The notes beneath the pieces are model-generated. The model worked only from the letters and a program-made list of their open reading frames with translations. It was not told the origin of the DNA and did no database searches. A stretch of DNA of 64,000 nt from a virus, in the IMG/VR virus record IMGVR_UViG_3300032322_001517, positions 1-64,000 of that record; one strand, given 5' to 3'. Shown in pieces: positions 18,800-44,556 of this stretch (positions within the stretch are counted from its first letter, which is position 1; each line of letters starts with the position of its first letter). The position numbers and the translations under genes were made by a program.

Positions 18800-19192
18800 A
18801 TGACATGGCTTTATAATGATAATCTTTTTGAAGATATCGCCGATTATGTCGGTTTTGTTTACTTGATAACAAACTTACAGAACGGCAGAAAATACATTGG
18901 CAAGAAAAATTTTTACTTTTCAAAGACTAGAACAGTCAAAGGAAAAAAGAAAAGAACCAAAGTTGAAAGCGATTGGAAAGAATACTTTGGCTCGAATAAA
19001 GAACTTCTGGAAGACGTTGAGAAGTTAGGTAAAGAAAATTTCAAAAGAGAAATAGTTCGTCTTTGTAAATCTAAAGGCGAATTTGGTTACTGGGAAGCCA
19101 AACTCCAATTTGAGAACAATGTTCTTGAATCCAATGATTATTATAATACTTGGATTATGGTTAGAGTGCATAAGAAACATTTGAAATTATGA
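18800..19192 (+). CDS. GIY-YIG-like putative endonuclease (conserved in T4-like phages)
   Basis: GFVYLITN..NGRKYIGKK...WKEYFGS...FKREIV. Confidence 0.8.
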   Translation: MTWLYNDNLFEDIADYVGFVYLITNLQNGRKYIGKKNFYFSKTRTVKGKKKRTKVESDWKEYFGSNKELLEDVEKLGKENFKREIVRLCKSKGEFGYWEAKLQFENNVLESNDYYNTWIMVRVHKKHLKL

Positions 19193-20301
19193 TAACATAT
19201 CATCCAGATAAATTTGGATTTTATACTGTAGGAAGTTTAAAAACATACAGTAAATTCGAGGCTATCGAATTATCACAAAAAATAAACACTCCTATAGAAT
19301 GGAATTTTAATGATGAAGTTTTTTCTTCAATTGATTGGAAGAAAGAACCTGATATGCCATTGTGGGAGATGTACAAAGATAGAGCAAGACAAATCAGAGA
19401 AGCATATGACTACGTAGTTCTATGGTATTCTGGTGGTAGCGATAGTCATAACATGTTATGCGCTTGGTTAGAGGCTGGTTGTAAACTTGATGAAGTTGCA
19501 ACTACAGTTAACTACGAAGCAACTGGTGACAAAAACAATTATATGAACACTGAGATATATAATGTTGTTATGCCTCATGTTGAACTACTACAACAACGTC
19601 ATGAATTTAAATTTAGAGTTGTTGATATATCACAAATGACTTTAGATTTATTTGATGTTTGGAATACTAATTTCGAGTACAATATAAATTTTCATTTTAG
19701 TCCAAATTATCCTGCAAGATGTTTGCTTCGCGAAAAAATTGAAGATTATAAGAACATCATTAATTCAGGTAAGAAATTGTGTTTTGTTTGGGGTAAAGAA
19801 AAACCTTTTATTAAATACGATAACAAACAACATTTTTTCTTTATTGATAATGTGGACAACGCAGTTAGTCCACATGTACAGAGAAAATATTTTGATGGGT
19901 GGTACGATGAATTGTTTTACTGGACTCCAGATTATCCATTGTTACCTGTAAAAATGTCTCATGTGATAAAAAACTATCTAGATATTAGCGAAGATACAGA
20001 TAATTATTTCATCAACGAAAATAAAGCGATAAATTATTACTCAACAAAATTAGATATGTTTTTAAAACCAAATCATGTTAAGTTATTATTATATCCTAAA
20101 TGGTCTGATATTATTCATGATGCAGGTAAACCTTTATCTTTAACATATAGTCAGAGAGATTTTTGGTTTTTAAGTTCTAAAATGGATAAAAGAAATAGAT
20201 ATATAGATATAACGAATAATTATTTCGATAGATTCCAAACTCGAGATGTTTTTCGAAACGCAGTTATGATTTTTGAGAGTAAAAAATATTACCTTGAATA
20301 A
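19189..20301 (+). CDS. PP-loop (adenine nucleotide alpha-hydrolase-like) protein of unknown function
   Basis: VVLWYSGGSDSH PP-loop; AT-rich. Confidence 0.65.
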   Translation: MITYHPDKFGFYTVGSLKTYSKFEAIELSQKINTPIEWNFNDEVFSSIDWKKEPDMPLWEMYKDRARQIREAYDYVVLWYSGGSDSHNMLCAWLEAGCKLDEVATTVNYEATGDKNNYMNTEIYNVVMPHVELLQQRHEFKFRVVDISQMTLDLFDVWNTNFEYNINFHFSPNYPARCLLREKIEDYKNIINSGKKLCFVWGKEKPFIKYDNKQHFFFIDNVDNAVSPHVQRKYFDGWYDELFYWTPDYPLLPVKMSHVIKNYLDISEDTDNYFINENKAINYYSTKLDMFLKPNHVKLLLYPKWSDIIHDAGKPLSLTYSQRDFWFLSSKMDKRNRYIDITNNYFDRFQTRDVFRNAVMIFESKKYYLE

Positions 20302-20306
20302 TTCTA

Positions 20307-20335
20307 TTGACATTTTAGATGGGGTAAGGTAATAT
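20307..20335 (+). promoter_or_regulatory. Early sigma70-like promoter
   Basis: TTGACA-N17-TAATAT upstream of tRNA-Leu. Confidence 0.7.
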
Positions 20336-20355
20336 ATGTATATGATGAAGTTTAC

Positions 20356-20432
20356 GCCCACGTAGACCAACAGGCAGAGTCAGGAGACTTAAAATCTCCG
20401 TAGTGTCAGTTCGAATCTGACCGTGGGCACCA
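20356..20432 (+). tRNA. tRNA-Leu(TAA), short variable arm
   Basis: Cloverleaf GCCCACG/CGTGGGC, GGAGA-CTTAAAA-TCTCC, TTCGAAT, CCA. Confidence 0.93.
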
Positions 20433-20451
20433 ATTTAACATGGAGTAAATA

Positions 20452-20556
20452 ATGCCGCATCCACATAAGAATCGTCCCCGTAAGGGTCGTCGTAAGGTTG
20501 GCTCTAAGAAGAGGCGTTCTCGTCGTTTGAAGGGTAAGAAGCGCGGAAATCGATAA
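20452..20556 (+). CDS. 34-aa Arg/Lys-rich peptide (not in ORF track)
   Basis: GGAG RBS; MPHPHKNRPRKGRRKVGSKKRRSRRLKGKKRGNR*. Confidence 0.75.
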   Translation: MPHPHKNRPRKGRRKVGSKKRRSRRLKGKKRGNR

Positions 20557-20564
20557 ATAATTTT

Positions 20565-20626
20565 GGGATCAATTCAGCATCATCGCCGTAAGGCACTTTT
20601 TTTTTGGAAAAAGCAAAGATGATCCC
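20565..20626 (+). ncRNA. Y-RNA-like array unit 1
   Basis: Closing helix GGGATCA/TGATCCC, CAGCA at +11, internal GCC-GTAA-GGC and U/A hairpins. Confidence 0.75.
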
Positions 20627-20636
20627 GTTAAGTTCT

Positions 20637-20854
20637 AGGGTAGTTACAGCATACGCCTCATAGCACCGAAGAAGTCTGCGGACTTTCTTCTCCAGTTAGA
20701 TACCTTCGGGTGATCTAACAGACTGTCTAGAGTCTTACTAGAATAGAGTGGTTGATTGTACCTTTACAGCTACTTCGTGGTACGCCATGATAGCCGAGGA
20801 AGGGTTGAGAAGTCCAACTCGATAAACTATCAAAGACGACAATCCACCTACCCT
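20637..20854 (+). ncRNA. Y-RNA-like array unit 2 (large multi-hairpin insert)
   Basis: Closing helix AGGGTAG/CTACCCT, CAGCA at +11, several hairpins incl. UUCG and UACG tetraloops. Confidence 0.75.
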
Positions 20855-20864
20855 GTTTAGTTTT

Positions 20865-20981
20865 AGGTTCACTACAGCATCAAATTGCAATACCTCCCAT
20901 AAAGGAGAAGTTTCGGTGCGAATCCGAGCGGTCTCATGAGACTGTGGTGTAAGAGTAGCACGCTAAAGCAAATGTGAACCT
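20865..20981 (+). ncRNA. Y-RNA-like array unit 3 (circularly permuted tRNA-like, CAT anticodon loop)
   Basis: Closing helix AGGTTCAC/GTGAACCT; order anticodon arm, T arm, looped acceptor stem, D arm. Confidence 0.8.
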
Positions 20982-20991
20982 GTTAAGTTTT

Positions 20992-21110
20992 AGGATTGTT
21001 TCAGCAAACAACTTTCCCAGCCAAAATTGGGACGTAGCTCATTTGGTAGAGCAAGAGTCTAATACACTCTCGGTAGTTGGTTCGATTCCAACCGTTAAAA
21101 AAGCAATCCT
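20992..21110 (+). ncRNA. Y-RNA-like array unit 4 (permuted tRNA-like, AAT anticodon loop)
   Basis: Closing helix AGGATTGTTT/AAGCAATCCT; TCCCA-G-CCA precedes TGGGACG, then D, anticodon and T arms. Confidence 0.8.
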
Positions 21111-21114
21111 GTTA

Positions 21115-21143
21115 TTGACTTTAAATACTGTCTAAGGTAATAT
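21115..21143 (+). promoter_or_regulatory. Early sigma70-like promoter inside the array
   Basis: TTGACT-N17-TAATAT, similar to the phage early promoters on the - strand. Confidence 0.72.
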
Positions 21144-21158
21144 AAGAATATTGAGTTT

Positions 21159-21211
21159 GGGATCAGTTCAGCAATCAACTGTTTTGCATTTAAACAAACC
21201 AAGTTGATCCC
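21159..21211 (+). ncRNA. Y-RNA-like array unit 5
   Basis: Closing helix GGGATCAG/TTGATCCC, CAGCA at +11, TGTTT-N7-AAACA hairpin. Confidence 0.75.
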
Positions 21212-21220
21212 GTTAATTCT

Positions 21221-21275
21221 AGATTGACTGCCGCAACTAAACAATTACACTTGAAATGTAACCAAAGTTCAATCT
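21221..21275 (+). ncRNA. Y-RNA-like array unit 6 (anticodon stem-loop mimic)
   Basis: Closing helix AGATTGA/TCAATCT, CCGCA at +11, TTACA-CTTGAAA-TGTAA hairpin. Confidence 0.75.
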
Positions 21276-21295
21276 GTTAAACATGGAGAAATGAA

Positions 21296-22735
21296 ATGAC
21301 TACTTTTGCTAATGCTGTTCGTAATCAGGAAGCTCGTACTGCCAATGGCATGAAGGCTCGTGCTTCTACTGCTAATGCTTGTGTTGATCTGTTCTTCAAG
21401 ATCGGTGCATCACGTGGCAAGAACATCGTTCCTGACTTCACTGCTGCTTATGTTCAGGACCGTGATATCGCTTCACGTATTGCTCTTTGGGCTCGTGATG
21501 CTCGTGGTGGTGCTGGTGAGCGTAAGCTGTTCCGCGATATCCTCAAGGAACTTGCTGTTCATGACGCAGATCGTGCGATTGCTCTTATGCAAAAGGCTCC
21601 TTATGTTGGTCGCTGGGATGACTTGCTTGTATTTGAGGATGAAGGTGTTCTTCAGCACTACGCTTTTGAAATGATTCGTCATGCGCTCGAAGACAACAAC
21701 GGTCTTTGTGCCAAGTGGATGCCTCGTAAGGGTCCAGTAGCTGCAAAGCTACGTGCTCATCTTGGTTGGTCGCCAAAGCGTTACCGCAAGACTCTTGTGT
21801 CTTTGACCAAGGTTGTTGAGCAGCAGATGTGTGCTAATCAGTGGGATGAGATTAACTTCAATCATGTTCCCTCAGTAGCTTCTGCTCGTTACAAGAAGGC
21901 GTTTGCTCGTCATACTGAAAAGTATAAGGAGTGGACTACTGCTCTTGTTTCTACCGATCCGAAGGTTAAGGAGACTGTAAAGGTTAACGCTGGTGCAGTT
22001 TACCCTTACGATGTTCTGAAGGGTCTTATCAACGTTGGTTATCATGCCAACTATGATAAGTCAAACCTTGATCATATTGTTGCTCAGTGGGAAGCTCTGC
22101 CGAACTTCGTTGGCGATGCAAATATTTTACCTTTGGTAGACGTTTCTGGTTCAATGACTTCTAAGGCAGGTGGGCTCAACTCCAAGTCCGTTGTGACTTG
22201 TCTGGATGTTTCTGTTTCGCTGGGTCTTTATCTGGCAGACAAGAACAAGGGTAAGTTCAAGGATACGTTCTTGACTTTCTCTAGCGCCCCTCAGCTGCTG
22301 AACCTTCGTGGCAACGTTGTCGAGAAGATCAAGCAAATGGTTACTTCAGAATGGCAAATGAGCACTGACCTTCACAAGGCAATGGACAAGATCCTTAGCG
22401 TTGCTATTCAGAACACTGTTCCTCAGGAGGAAATGCCTGAGATGCTTCTGATCCTGTCAGATATGCAGTTCAACCAGTGCACTCGCTTTGATGATTCTGC
22501 AATGCAGATGATTCATCGCAAGTTCGAAAACGCTGGTTACAAGGTTCCTGCTATCGTGTTCTGGAATCTGAATGCTGCGGATAATGTTCCTGTTAAGCAC
22601 GATGCTTCTGGTGTTGCGCTTGTATCAGGGTTCTCGCCTTCTATCGTAAAGTCTATCCTGTCTGCGGATATGGAACAGTTTACTCCTGAAGGTATCATGA
22701 TGAAGACTATTATGTCGGAGCGTTACTCGCTCTGA
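21296..22735 (+). CDS. DUF2828-family TROVE/Ro60-like protein with C-terminal vWA domain
   Basis: TANG...CVDLFF..RDARGGAGER..GRWDDL..CAKWMPR helical region; vWA MIDAS DVSGS and LSDMQF, IVFWNL. Confidence 0.85.
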   Translation: MTTFANAVRNQEARTANGMKARASTANACVDLFFKIGASRGKNIVPDFTAAYVQDRDIASRIALWARDARGGAGERKLFRDILKELAVHDADRAIALMQKAPYVGRWDDLLVFEDEGVLQHYAFEMIRHALEDNNGLCAKWMPRKGPVAAKLRAHLGWSPKRYRKTLVSLTKVVEQQMCANQWDEINFNHVPSVASARYKKAFARHTEKYKEWTTALVSTDPKVKETVKVNAGAVYPYDVLKGLINVGYHANYDKSNLDHIVAQWEALPNFVGDANILPLVDVSGSMTSKAGGLNSKSVVTCLDVSVSLGLYLADKNKGKFKDTFLTFSSAPQLLNLRGNVVEKIKQMVTSEWQMSTDLHKAMDKILSVAIQNTVPQEEMPEMLLILSDMQFNQCTRFDDSAMQMIHRKFENAGYKVPAIVFWNLNAADNVPVKHDASGVALVSGFSPSIVKSILSADMEQFTPEGIMMKTIMSERYSL

Positions 22736-22749
22736 CATAAATACTATAC

Positions 22750-22824
22750 GCGGGTATGGCATAATGGTGGTGCATCAGCCTTCCAAGCTGACTAGGACCG
22801 GTTCGATTCCGGCTACCCGCTCCA
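22750..22824 (+). tRNA. tRNA-Gly(TCC)
   Basis: Cloverleaf, TCAGC-CTTCCAA-GCTGA, U73-CCA. Confidence 0.95.
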
Positions 22825-22839
22825 TATTATAGGAGATTT

Positions 22840-23535
22840 ATGATGTATCAATCTACTACATTTTCTAAAGTCCAGTATGATGAAGGACTTCGCAGTTTTA
22901 TGCTGCAAGTTTACAATTACATGACTTTTGCGCTTGCTCTTAGTGGACTTGTTTCGCTAGGTATCTCTATGTCCCCTGCTCTGATGGCAGTGATTTGGGG
23001 TACTGCATTGAAGTGGGTTGTTATTCTTGCGCCACTGGCAATGTCTATTGGCTTCGCATTTATGATTGAAAAGATTAATTCTAATACAGCAAAGCTGTTT
23101 CTGTTTGCTTTTGCTCTAGCGATGGGTTTGAGCCTGAGTTCAATCTTTGCTATCTATAAGATGGGCAGCATTATTCACGTATTTTTCATTTCAGCGGCTA
23201 CATTTGGTGCTGCTTCTTTGTATGGGTATACAACGAAGGCTGACTTGACTAAGATGGGTTCATTCCTGATTATGGGTGTTATCGGTCTTGTTATTGCTGG
23301 TCTTGTAAACCTTTTCCTACAAAGTTCAATGTTTGCCTTTGTTATTAGCTGTCTTGCAGTTCTTATCTTTACTGGTCTAACTGCATATGACACTCAGCAG
23401 ATTAAGCAGATGTACGATGAAACAGAAGGCGAAGAACAAAAGAAGGCTGGAGTTATTGGAGCTCTAATGCTTTATATGGACTTCATTAACATCTTCATCA
23501 ATCTGCTTCAAATTATCGGAGATAAGAAAGAATGA
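22840..23535 (+). CDS. Bax inhibitor-1/YccA family membrane protein
   Basis: YDEGLRSFMLQVYNYM, about 7 TM helices, GLTAYDTQ, LYMDFINIF. Confidence 0.92.
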   Translation: MMYQSTTFSKVQYDEGLRSFMLQVYNYMTFALALSGLVSLGISMSPALMAVIWGTALKWVVILAPLAMSIGFAFMIEKINSNTAKLFLFAFALAMGLSLSSIFAIYKMGSIIHVFFISAATFGAASLYGYTTKADLTKMGSFLIMGVIGLVIAGLVNLFLQSSMFAFVISCLAVLIFTGLTAYDTQQIKQMYDETEGEEQKKAGVIGALMLYMDFINIFINLLQIIGDKKE

Positions 23536-40998: not shown

Positions 40999-41076
40999 TG
41001 GAGGGGAAAACGAGACTCGAACTCGCATTCGTAGGTTTTGCAGACCCTGCCGTAACCAATTCCGGCGCACTTCCCC
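40999..41076 (-). tRNA. tRNA-Cys(GCA)
   Basis: Loop CTGCAAA, U73-CCA. Confidence 0.9.
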
Positions 41077-41170: not shown

Positions 41171-41246
41171 TGGCGCAACTAACGAGTATCGATCTCGCCA
41201 AACCTGGATTGACAGTCCAGTGGGTTCACCTGCTCCCTCTAGTTGC
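41171..41246 (-). tRNA. tRNA-Asp(GTC)
   Basis: CTGGA-CTGTCAA-TCCAG, G73; T loop ATCGATA. Confidence 0.88.
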
Positions 41247-44187: not shown

Positions 44188-44265
44188 TGGTCCTCTGTAT
44201 CGGATTTGAACCGATGCTCTCCGCGCTTGAAAGGCGGGTATGTTTGACCGCTACACCAACAGAGG
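44188..44265 (-). tRNA. tRNA-Glu(TTC)
   Basis: Loop CTTTCAA. Confidence 0.9.
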
Positions 44266-44473: not shown

Positions 44474-44556
44474 TGGAGGACTGGGTGGGACTCGAACCCA
44501 CGATGTTGTATAGCAGATTAAAAGTCTGCGCCGTTCGCCACTACGGTAACCAGTCC
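44474..44556 (-). tRNA. tRNA-Lys(TTT) with 11-nt variable region
   Basis: GCAGA-CTTTTAA-TCTGC, variable TATACAACATC, U73-CCA. Confidence 0.88.

Follow-up and report, generated by a model that had tools for sequence, protein, structure and literature searches.

Candidate partner RNAs of a divergent Ro60-like phage protein: a tandem array of six units closed by a common handle

What are six sequence units with unrelated interiors, all closed by the same kind of short terminal helix, doing directly in front of a gene for a Ro60-like protein? The question is raised by positions 20565 to 22735 of the IMG/VR virus record IMGVR_UViG_3300032322_001517, a record of 105,664 nucleotides (nt) that is approximately 63% complete and of which the first 64,000 nt form the analysed window. 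The array of six units sits between a tRNA-Leu(UAA) gene and a 479-codon open reading frame (ORF) at 21296-22735. We consider it likely that each unit encodes a small non-coding RNA and that these RNAs serve as partners of the adjacent Ro60-like protein in a Y-RNA-like particle. This reading is supported because the protein has a Ro60-like predicted fold, because the stem that closes the units covaries, and because the stem together with its adjoining motif, referred to here as the handle, is found beside the gene in close as well as in distant loci.

Six units closed by a common handle

The region had been described in an earlier note as carrying six units. A composite scan was run on the 64-kb window for a 5' stem of at least 7 base pairs (bp), a spacer of 2-4 nt, the motif C[ACT]GCA, the reverse-complement stem within 450 nt, and then GTT. 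Six matches were found on the plus strand, and these were precisely the six units of that description, compared to two matches on the minus strand. In Markov-1 simulated windows the composite pattern occurred with a mean of 0.67 and a maximum of 3 per strand. The motif TNCAGCAA alone was found 21 times in the window compared to 12.8 expected and was barely enriched, so that the evidence rests on the composite pattern. The six units, with the 5' and 3' strands of the handle where given, are the following.

20565-20626, plus strand: unit 1, 62 nt; handle GGGATCA/TGATCCC; 46.7 bits (E 3e-8) with covariance model R1; homologous units in the related loci L006 and L011
20637-20854, plus strand: unit 2, 218 nt; handle AGGGTAG/CTACCCT; conserved in the related loci L004 and L006
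20865-20981, plus strand: unit 3, 117 nt; handle AGGTTCAC/GTGAACCT; identical unit in L004
20992-21110, plus strand: unit 4, 119 nt; circularly permuted tRNA body inside the handle
21159-21211, plus strand: unit 5, 53 nt; handle GGGATCAG/TTGATCCC; 52.6 bits (E 1e-9) with covariance model R1
21221-21275, plus strand: unit 6, 55 nt; handle AGATTGA/TCAATCT; 55.8 bits (E 2e-10) with covariance model R1

The terminal helix of the units was found to be 7-8 bp, and RNAfold closed all six units with it. The C of C(A/C)GCA is nucleotide 11 in six of the six units, a T precedes each unit and GTT follows it, exactly as the earlier note had claimed in placing this motif 10 nt after the 5' end. The four linkers of 9-10 nt between units (GTTAAGTTCT, GTTTAGTTTT, GTTAAGTTTT and GTTAATTCT) also read as they had been given, and the gap between units 4 and 5 is 48 nt. 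The claimed distance of 20 nt from the end of the array to the protein gene was found again between unit 6 and the ATG at 21296, and unit 6 lies within the leader of the gene, beside the Shine-Dalgarno sequence. No further short-type handle was found in the rest of the 105-kb record, including its cluster of 24 tRNA genes. A covariance model built from 56 short units detected short units only and missed the long ones, and was therefore unusable for a census.

The gene that follows the array encodes the protein that gives the locus its interest.

21296-22735, plus strand: Ro60-like protein, 479 residues; Pfam DUF2828 and DUF7788; PHROG 850; predicted helical ring and von Willebrand factor A (vWA) domain

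Pfam matched DUF7788 (E 4.9e-48) and the C-terminal part of DUF2828 (E 2.4e-17), and the match to PHROG 850, 'RNA-binding protein', ran from end to end (E 4e-138). A Ro60-like fold had been proposed for this protein, and the predicted structure agrees with the proposal. The AlphaFold2 model, made with 69 homologs, had a predicted local distance difference test (pLDDT) score of 89 and a predicted template modelling (pTM) score of 0.88. The top 13 Foldseek matches in the PDB were all Ro60 (Thermus phage phiLo, Xenopus, human and Deinococcus) with E values from 4e-10 to 3e-6. Alignment of the model to Xenopus Ro60 (1yvr) with VIA-align gave a Z score of 22.7, with 414 residues aligned at a root-mean-square deviation of 4.2 Å, compared to a Z score of at most 10.8 for chains sharing the vWA domain only. 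The residues of the metal-ion-dependent adhesion site (MIDAS), D282, S284, S286, T357 and D389, were invariant in the 69 homologs. By its predicted fold the protein is a divergent Ro60-type ring protein, although it is not one by the Pfam TROVE profile.

Homologs, nearly all of them full length, were found in at least 710 phage records, among them Felix O1, P100/A511, KVP40-type phages and mycobacteriophages, and the protein family is also present in thousands of metagenome clusters. Mycobacteriophage records name the homolog 'Ro-like RNA binding protein'; this name and the name 'RNA-binding protein' (PHROG 850, RefSeq) are remote-homology annotations. The homolog of Salmonella phage 7t3 is annotated as a 'structural protein'. 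Eukaryotic DUF2828 proteins (Trichoderma, Rhododendron) are clear homologs of the phage protein (E ~1e-70), and all the long homologs recovered among eukaryotes in the search were from fungi and plants.

Conservation of the handle in close and distant phages

Related loci were obtained from 80 viral contigs with protein identity of 60-97% (protein search) and from three annotated phages, giving 83 loci. A megablast search of the locus against phage records gave no match. The composite scan of the 83 loci found 202 units on the gene strand compared to nine on the opposite strand. Upstream sequence extended to at least 600 nt in 70 loci, and in 66 of these a unit ended within 600 nt upstream of the gene; in approximately 33 related loci the last unit ended 16-24 nt before the ATG. 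Unit lengths ranged from 49 to approximately 280 nt, the short units being 49-66 nt, and arrays held up to seven units.

Position tables of 184 distinct units gave a 5' consensus with U just outside the unit and A-G-G-W-U-N-N-N-U-N-C-A-G-C-A-A from its first nucleotide, and a 3' consensus with (A-rich) N-N-A-W-C-C-U at the end of the unit and G-U-U-(G/A) just outside it. The spacing from the start to the C was 10 in 173 of these units. When the 56 short units were aligned, two-sided changes were found at six of the eight pairs of the terminal helix, and 92.6% of cells were paired compared to 32-49% in slid controls; none of 500 shuffles reached the observed covariation. These findings show that the handle stem covaries strongly.

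As distant carriers, loci were fetched from seven phages whose proteins have 31-48% identity, and the handle was found beside the gene in every one of them.

Synechococcus phage BUCT-ZZ01: three units, just upstream of the gene
Listeria phage AG20: three units, just upstream of the gene
Mycobacteriophage Faith1: three units, just downstream of the gene
Felix O1: four units, downstream, interspersed with tRNA genes
Cronobacter S13: one unit, downstream
Citrobacter Ci1: one unit, downstream
Vibrio phage nt-1: one unit, 3 kb upstream

Between groups, the bases of the stem and those that follow it vary (AGACC.../GG in Felix O1, UGGnC.../GUA in Faith1), and the stem, the spacer and CAGCAA at nucleotides 11-16 are constant across groups. 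In T4, which is without the gene, no handle was found in the tRNA region, and the species 1 and 2 RNAs (rnaC, rnaD) are without it. The earlier note had paired such arrays with DUF2828-type genes and proposed a scan of the flanks of these genes; the pairing was recovered in the 66 of 70 close loci as well as in these very distant phages.

The three units upstream of the AG20 gene can be compared with a published transcriptome. A multi-omics study of Listeria phage CKA15 described three unannotated regions with very high transcription, located up to 2 kb upstream of the homolog CKA15_055, and its authors reported an HHpred match of CKA15_055 to Rsr and suggested that the transcripts might be Y RNAs (PMC12282133). 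The AG20 units are consistent with this description by their position relative to the homolog. Mass spectrometry of purified virions also identified CKA15_055, with 20 peptides and 57% sequence coverage (PMC12282133), and the protein may be packaged in virions. In the literature searched there was no paper describing the handle RNAs, and for the DUF2828/DUF7788 family only the CKA15 suggestion of Y RNAs was found.

Two further observations were made in the distant phages. Over-long 'tRNA' genes of 113-121 nt, with Rfam tRNA scores of 40.9-56.9 bits, are present in three of them.

L003:4396-4638: location in S13
L002:4080-4324: location in BUCT-ZZ01
L001:4512-4625: location in Ci1

In place of the anticodon loop, these genes have A-rich sequence, a capped hairpin of 7 bp, AUU and CAGCA. 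Read from sequence, the arrangement is a circular permutation of the usual unit, in which the open end of the handle would be capped and the tRNA ends would be free. In AG20, an RtcB-type 'tRNA splicing ligase' and a metal-dependent phosphohydrolase (L086:6755-8062) are encoded 0.6-1.3 kb downstream of the Ro60-like gene, and these neighbours give an RNA-repair context in that phage. In the window, a PHROG scan identified no RtcB-type ligase or phosphohydrolase beside the array.

Interiors of the units and comparison with known RNAs

The interior, or cargo, differs from unit to unit. Unit 1 contains a GUAA-capped hairpin and a U/A hairpin. Unit 2 contains a multi-helix RNA with UUCG loops, in which five compensatory pairs were found among three sequences, and gave no Rfam match. 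In unit 3, a T-arm-like hairpin (loop UGCGAAU) is accompanied by a closed acceptor-like stem of 6-7 bp and more hairpins, in a YrlA-like layout. Unit 5 contains a 5-bp hairpin with a non-canonical 7-nt loop. The interior of unit 6 is a 5-bp stem with the loop CUUGAAA, which is the anticodon loop of the tRNA-Ser(UGA) of the same phage, and an anticodon-arm mimic is plausible here.

Unit 4 was matched by Rfam tRNA (RF00005) with 48.4 bits at 21028-21100 (cut-off 29), with two acceptor pairs mispaired, and it was called by ARAGORN too. After CAGCAA, its elements follow in the order UCCCA-G-CCA, short loop, UGGGACG, D arm, anticodon arm (loop CUAAUAC), T arm and handle. The better-pairing acceptor 3' strand and GCCA are located upstream of the D arm, the loop containing GCCA closes the acceptor end, and the handle joins the tRNA body through the acceptor 3' strand. 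The interior of unit 4 is better described as a module of tRNA shape set within the handle than as a free tRNA.

Similar cargo was found in the related loci. T-arm-like hairpins were present in 33 of the 126 long units, compared to one on the reverse complement and 0.6 in shuffles, and ARAGORN called permuted tRNAs in 14 of the 126 compared to none in shuffles. An anticodon-arm-like hairpin was present in 32 of the 56 short units compared to 0.9 in shuffles; only this shuffle control is informative, the reverse-complement control (33 compared to 32) being uninformative with a loop pattern that is near self-complementary. When 18 long units (186-236 nt) were aligned, no interior structure beyond the handle was shared, indicating several unrelated cargo types. 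tRNA mimicry is common among the units, not general. The earlier statement that the interiors are mostly tRNA-mimicking therefore stands in part: it is clear for units 3 and 4 and plausible for unit 6, weak for units 1 and 5, and not apparent for unit 2, and approximately one-quarter of the related long units have a T-arm-like hairpin.

The locus was compared with known Ro60/Y RNA systems, namely vertebrate Ro60/Y RNA, Deinococcus Rsr/Yrn1, Salmonella and Mycobacterium Rsr/YrlA-YrlB, and phiLo. In Ro60, Y RNA sits on the outer face, and the ends of misfolded RNAs are bound in the central hole. The Ro60 of Thermus phage phiLo binds two Y-like RNAs (Yrl1-Yrl2) encoded upstream of its gene (PMC12135203), and YrlA RNAs carry tRNA-like domains and adjoin rsr (PMC4201824). 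The present locus is like these systems in its predicted helical-repeat ring and vWA domain with MIDAS, in the pairing of the 5' and 3' ends of the RNAs, in having the genes on the same strand and adjoining the protein gene, and in having several RNAs per locus. As with YrlA, the units lie within approximately 4 kb of a Ro60-type gene, at least one RNA has a tRNA-like domain, and some units have tRNA-like modules in the layout T arm, closed acceptor stem, D arm. In contrast to YrlA, the anticodon arm is still present in unit 4, and the break is in its acceptor strand.

The units also differ from Y RNAs in what is conserved, which is U-N-CAGCAA at nucleotides 9-16 and an A-rich 3' strand instead of the bulged GGUCCGA helix or the GNCGAA/CGAA motif that is a feature of bacterial and phage Y RNAs (PMC4201824, PMC12135203). 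The consensus GNCGAAN0-1G (CGAA) was absent in the position tables of the 184 distinct units. Moreover, the cargo is far more varied than in Y RNAs (49 to approximately 280 nt), arrays reach 6-7 units, and a handle is present in the gene's own leader. Rfam scans of the window and five related loci, with gathering and with permissive thresholds, returned tRNA only. No Y-RNA families were found in 20200-22900 at E up to 10, and the best score of YrlA (RF02553) on the array, in a scan of the whole record, was 11.8 bits (unit 4, E 1.35) compared to a cut-off of 69. These results agree with the proposal that the units are a distinct family with CAGCA instead of GNCGAA.

A resemblance was found to the Class I RNAs, which were reported to be unique to Dictyostelia (PMC7919456). 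Class I RNAs have a covarying terminal stem, an 11-nt motif by the 5' strand, a variable interior and conserved post-stem bases (PMC7919456), with sequences of the form GUUGAC-CUUA-CAGCAA...(A-rich)...GUCAAC-UG (supplement, PMC7919456). Their nucleotides 1-16 align gap-free with units of the window and of the Listeria phage, mycobacteriophage, Felix O1, cyanophage and Vibrio phage, and C11, G13, C14 and A15 are invariant in the alignment. The two groups have in common CAGCAA at nucleotides 11-16, a short covarying stem that joins the ends, with the 11-nt motif (CCUUACAGCAA type) by its 5' strand, an A-rich segment before the 3' strand, a variable interior, few conserved post-stem bases and many copies per genome. 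The Class I length of approximately 42-65 nt is matched by units 1, 5 and 6 only. In contrast to the phage units, Class I RNAs are eukaryotic and are individually transcribed from Dictyostelium upstream sequence element (DUSE) promoters, their stem sequence is near-fixed within a species, and tRNA-like cargo was not reported for them. With the Class I model RF01414 on the whole record, the best score was 15.2 bits, off the array (cut-off 41.5), and the array gave no match. The link to Class I RNAs is, at the level of sequence, a resemblance.

Transcript layout, rival explanations and meaning

The promoter-like sites and neighbouring genes of the array are the following.

20307-20335, plus strand: promoter-like site P1, TTGACA-17-TAATAT (10/12 in a consensus scan), upstream of tRNA-Leu, the 34-residue ORF and units 1-4
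20356-20432, plus strand: tRNA-Leu(UAA), called by ARAGORN (Rfam tRNA 55.6 bits); presumed first gene of the transcript
20452-20556, plus strand: Arg/Lys-rich ORF of 34 residues (ORF list), between tRNA-Leu and unit 1
21115-21143, plus strand: promoter-like site P2, TTGACT-17-TAATAT (9/12 in a consensus scan), in the gap between units 4 and 5
22750-22824, plus strand: tRNA-Gly(UCC), called by ARAGORN (Rfam tRNA 57.2 bits), directly 3' of the Ro60-like gene

No terminator-like sites were seen inside the array. The array is probably not a single transcription unit, since P2 would divide it between units 4 and 5. From the sites listed, there are probably two transcription units, one with tRNA-Leu, the 34-residue ORF and units 1-4, and the other with units 5-6 and the protein gene.

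In the 34-residue ORF, 18 residues are Arg or Lys. It is retained as an ORF in L006, directly upstream of the array of that locus (85% identity), and in L010 and L037 it is retained for the N-terminal 24-29 residues; Pfam and PHROG scans gave no match. The ORF may be a real small basic protein, possibly RNA-binding, and its part in the system is uncertain.

Further afield, a SegE-type GIY-YIG homing endonuclease (18800-19192, plus strand; Pfam E 3e-40) is encoded 1.4 kb 5' of the array, and a Bax1-I family membrane protein (22840-23535, plus strand; Pfam E 3e-60) is encoded after tRNA-Gly. ARAGORN found 28 tRNA genes in the record. One of the minus-strand tRNAs, tRNA-Lys(UUU) at 44474-44556 (83 nt), has a variable region that is unusually long for a Lys tRNA. 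Another, at 44188-44265 (minus strand), has the anticodon UCA and was called 'tRNA-SeC' by ARAGORN and an ordinary tRNA by Rfam (54 bits); it may be a suppressor-type tRNA that reads UGA. In the big tRNA cluster, 41002-41076 and 41174-41246 (minus strand) scored 39.0 and 41.2 bits with Rfam tRNA, respectively, and ARAGORN calls neither; these may be divergent tRNAs or tRNA-like RNAs.

If the units are partner RNAs of the Ro60-like protein, we infer the following for transcription, border processing, binding, autoregulation and a role as decoy, as adaptor or in repair. Two sigma-70-like promoters would drive the array, P1 giving tRNA-Leu, the 34-residue ORF and units 1-4, and P2 giving units 5-6 and the mRNA, and the precursors would be cut at the conserved borders, between U and AGG at the 5' side and between CCU and GUU at the 3' side. 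The protein would recognise the handle as a 7-8 bp helix of free sequence, a single-stranded U-N-CAGCAA from nucleotide 9 and an A-rich strand before the 3' half, and the protein would be a shared platform from which the variable interiors present tRNA bodies, tRNA arms and other folds. In analogy to Ro60 and Y RNAs, the ring would be tethered to, or would compete for, factors that recognise tRNA, the candidates being tRNA-cutting nucleases of the host or enzymes of processing, repair and modification. With the last handle in the leader, 20 nt before the ATG, there may also be autoregulation, in which the protein would bind its mRNA and hold down its own production.

A number of observations weigh against partner RNAs. 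The handle has neither the bulged helix nor GNCGAA/CGAA, so that the known mode of binding between Ro60 and Y RNA is not transferable to it. Pfam TROVE (PF05731) gave no match to the protein in a scan at E up to 1, and the profile of 69 homologs reached solved TROVE/Ro60 chains only at E 0.18, via the MIDAS stretch; the relation to Ro60 thus rests on predicted structure. Most long interiors are of no recognised type. The only direct binder reported for a Class I RNA is Rnp1A/CIBP, which belongs to the RNA recognition motif (RRM) proteins rather than to those with a vWA domain (PMC7919456). In some phages, kilobases separate the gene from its nearest unit (3 kb in nt-1), and co-location could partly reflect the presence of both the gene and the RNAs in tRNA clusters.

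The main rival explanation takes up this last point. The handle would be a processing or stability module read by a host factor or another phage factor, for instance an RNase by which transcripts of tRNA operons are trimmed, and the Ro60-like gene would be no more than a frequent neighbour, both being located in tRNA clusters. The units do lie inside tRNA operons, their conserved bases stand exactly at the borders (U before AGG, CCU before GUU), as those of cleavage sites would, and in nt-1, S13 and Felix O1 they are not immediately upstream of the gene. However, the handle is kept across Gram-negative, Gram-positive and actinobacterial hosts with differing RNases, and it is the phage protein that is the constant companion; the proximity of a unit to the gene in 66 of 70 close loci and the lack of further short-type handles in the rest of the record, with its 24-tRNA cluster, also speak against a module for tRNA operons. 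We regard this explanation as unlikely. A smaller chance still is given to a chiefly cis-regulatory role, in which the protein or another factor regulates translation of the gene through the leader handles, those further upstream being duplicates of this operator. The last unit stands 16-24 nt before the ATG in approximately 33 loci and 20 nt before it here, beside the Shine-Dalgarno sequence, as such a role would have it, but such control does not account for the structured, conserved and mutually unrelated interiors of arrays that reach seven units, for the downstream units of Faith1, Felix O1 and S13, or for the units split off by their own promoter. Control of this kind is better seen as a side function of partner RNAs.

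It is very improbable, in our judgement, that working tRNAs arise from the units by rearrangement or splicing, the units being permuted or interrupted tRNA genes with the terminal helix as splice signal, or that the units are decayed tRNA genes. All the tRNA arms are present in unit 4, in permuted order, its closing loop contains GCCA, and the 'tRNAs' of 113-121 nt in S13, Ci1 and BUCT-ZZ01 carry the handle as a capped hairpin at the anticodon loop. In contrast, a tRNA body is absent from most units, the short ones span just 49-66 nt, and a permuted tRNA was found in only 14 of the 126 long units. Conservation and covariation centre on the handle and not on tRNA identity elements, and decayed genes would not retain compensatory changes. 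The cis-regulatory and the rearranged-tRNA explanations each account for only parts of the data, and partner RNAs of the Ro60-like protein are the explanation that we favour.

A wider proposal, tentative and in our view rather doubtful, is that the DUF2828-type Ro60 relative and the RNAs with the CAGCAA handle are a second ancient Ro60/Y-RNA branch of phages and eukaryotes, with Class I RNAs as its eukaryotic partners. The phage handle would then be a general-purpose connector through which interchangeable tRNA mimics, such as whole permuted tRNAs or anticodon arms, are loaded onto the ring, as decoys for tRNA-cutting host nucleases or to recruit repair enzymes.

Ro60/Y-RNA particles are a long-studied RNA-surveillance system of unclear function, and the present locus would add a divergent Ro60-like family with its own candidate family of partner RNAs and a simple handle. 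With this handle, hundreds of unannotated phage RNA genes become nameable, and there is now a concrete candidate for what the very abundant unannotated transcripts of CKA15 are. For Class I RNAs, an orphan class without a known mechanism, the match to the handle offers an idea that can be tested directly, and culturable model phages could be used to study the role of a Ro60-type ring with tRNA mimics in infection.

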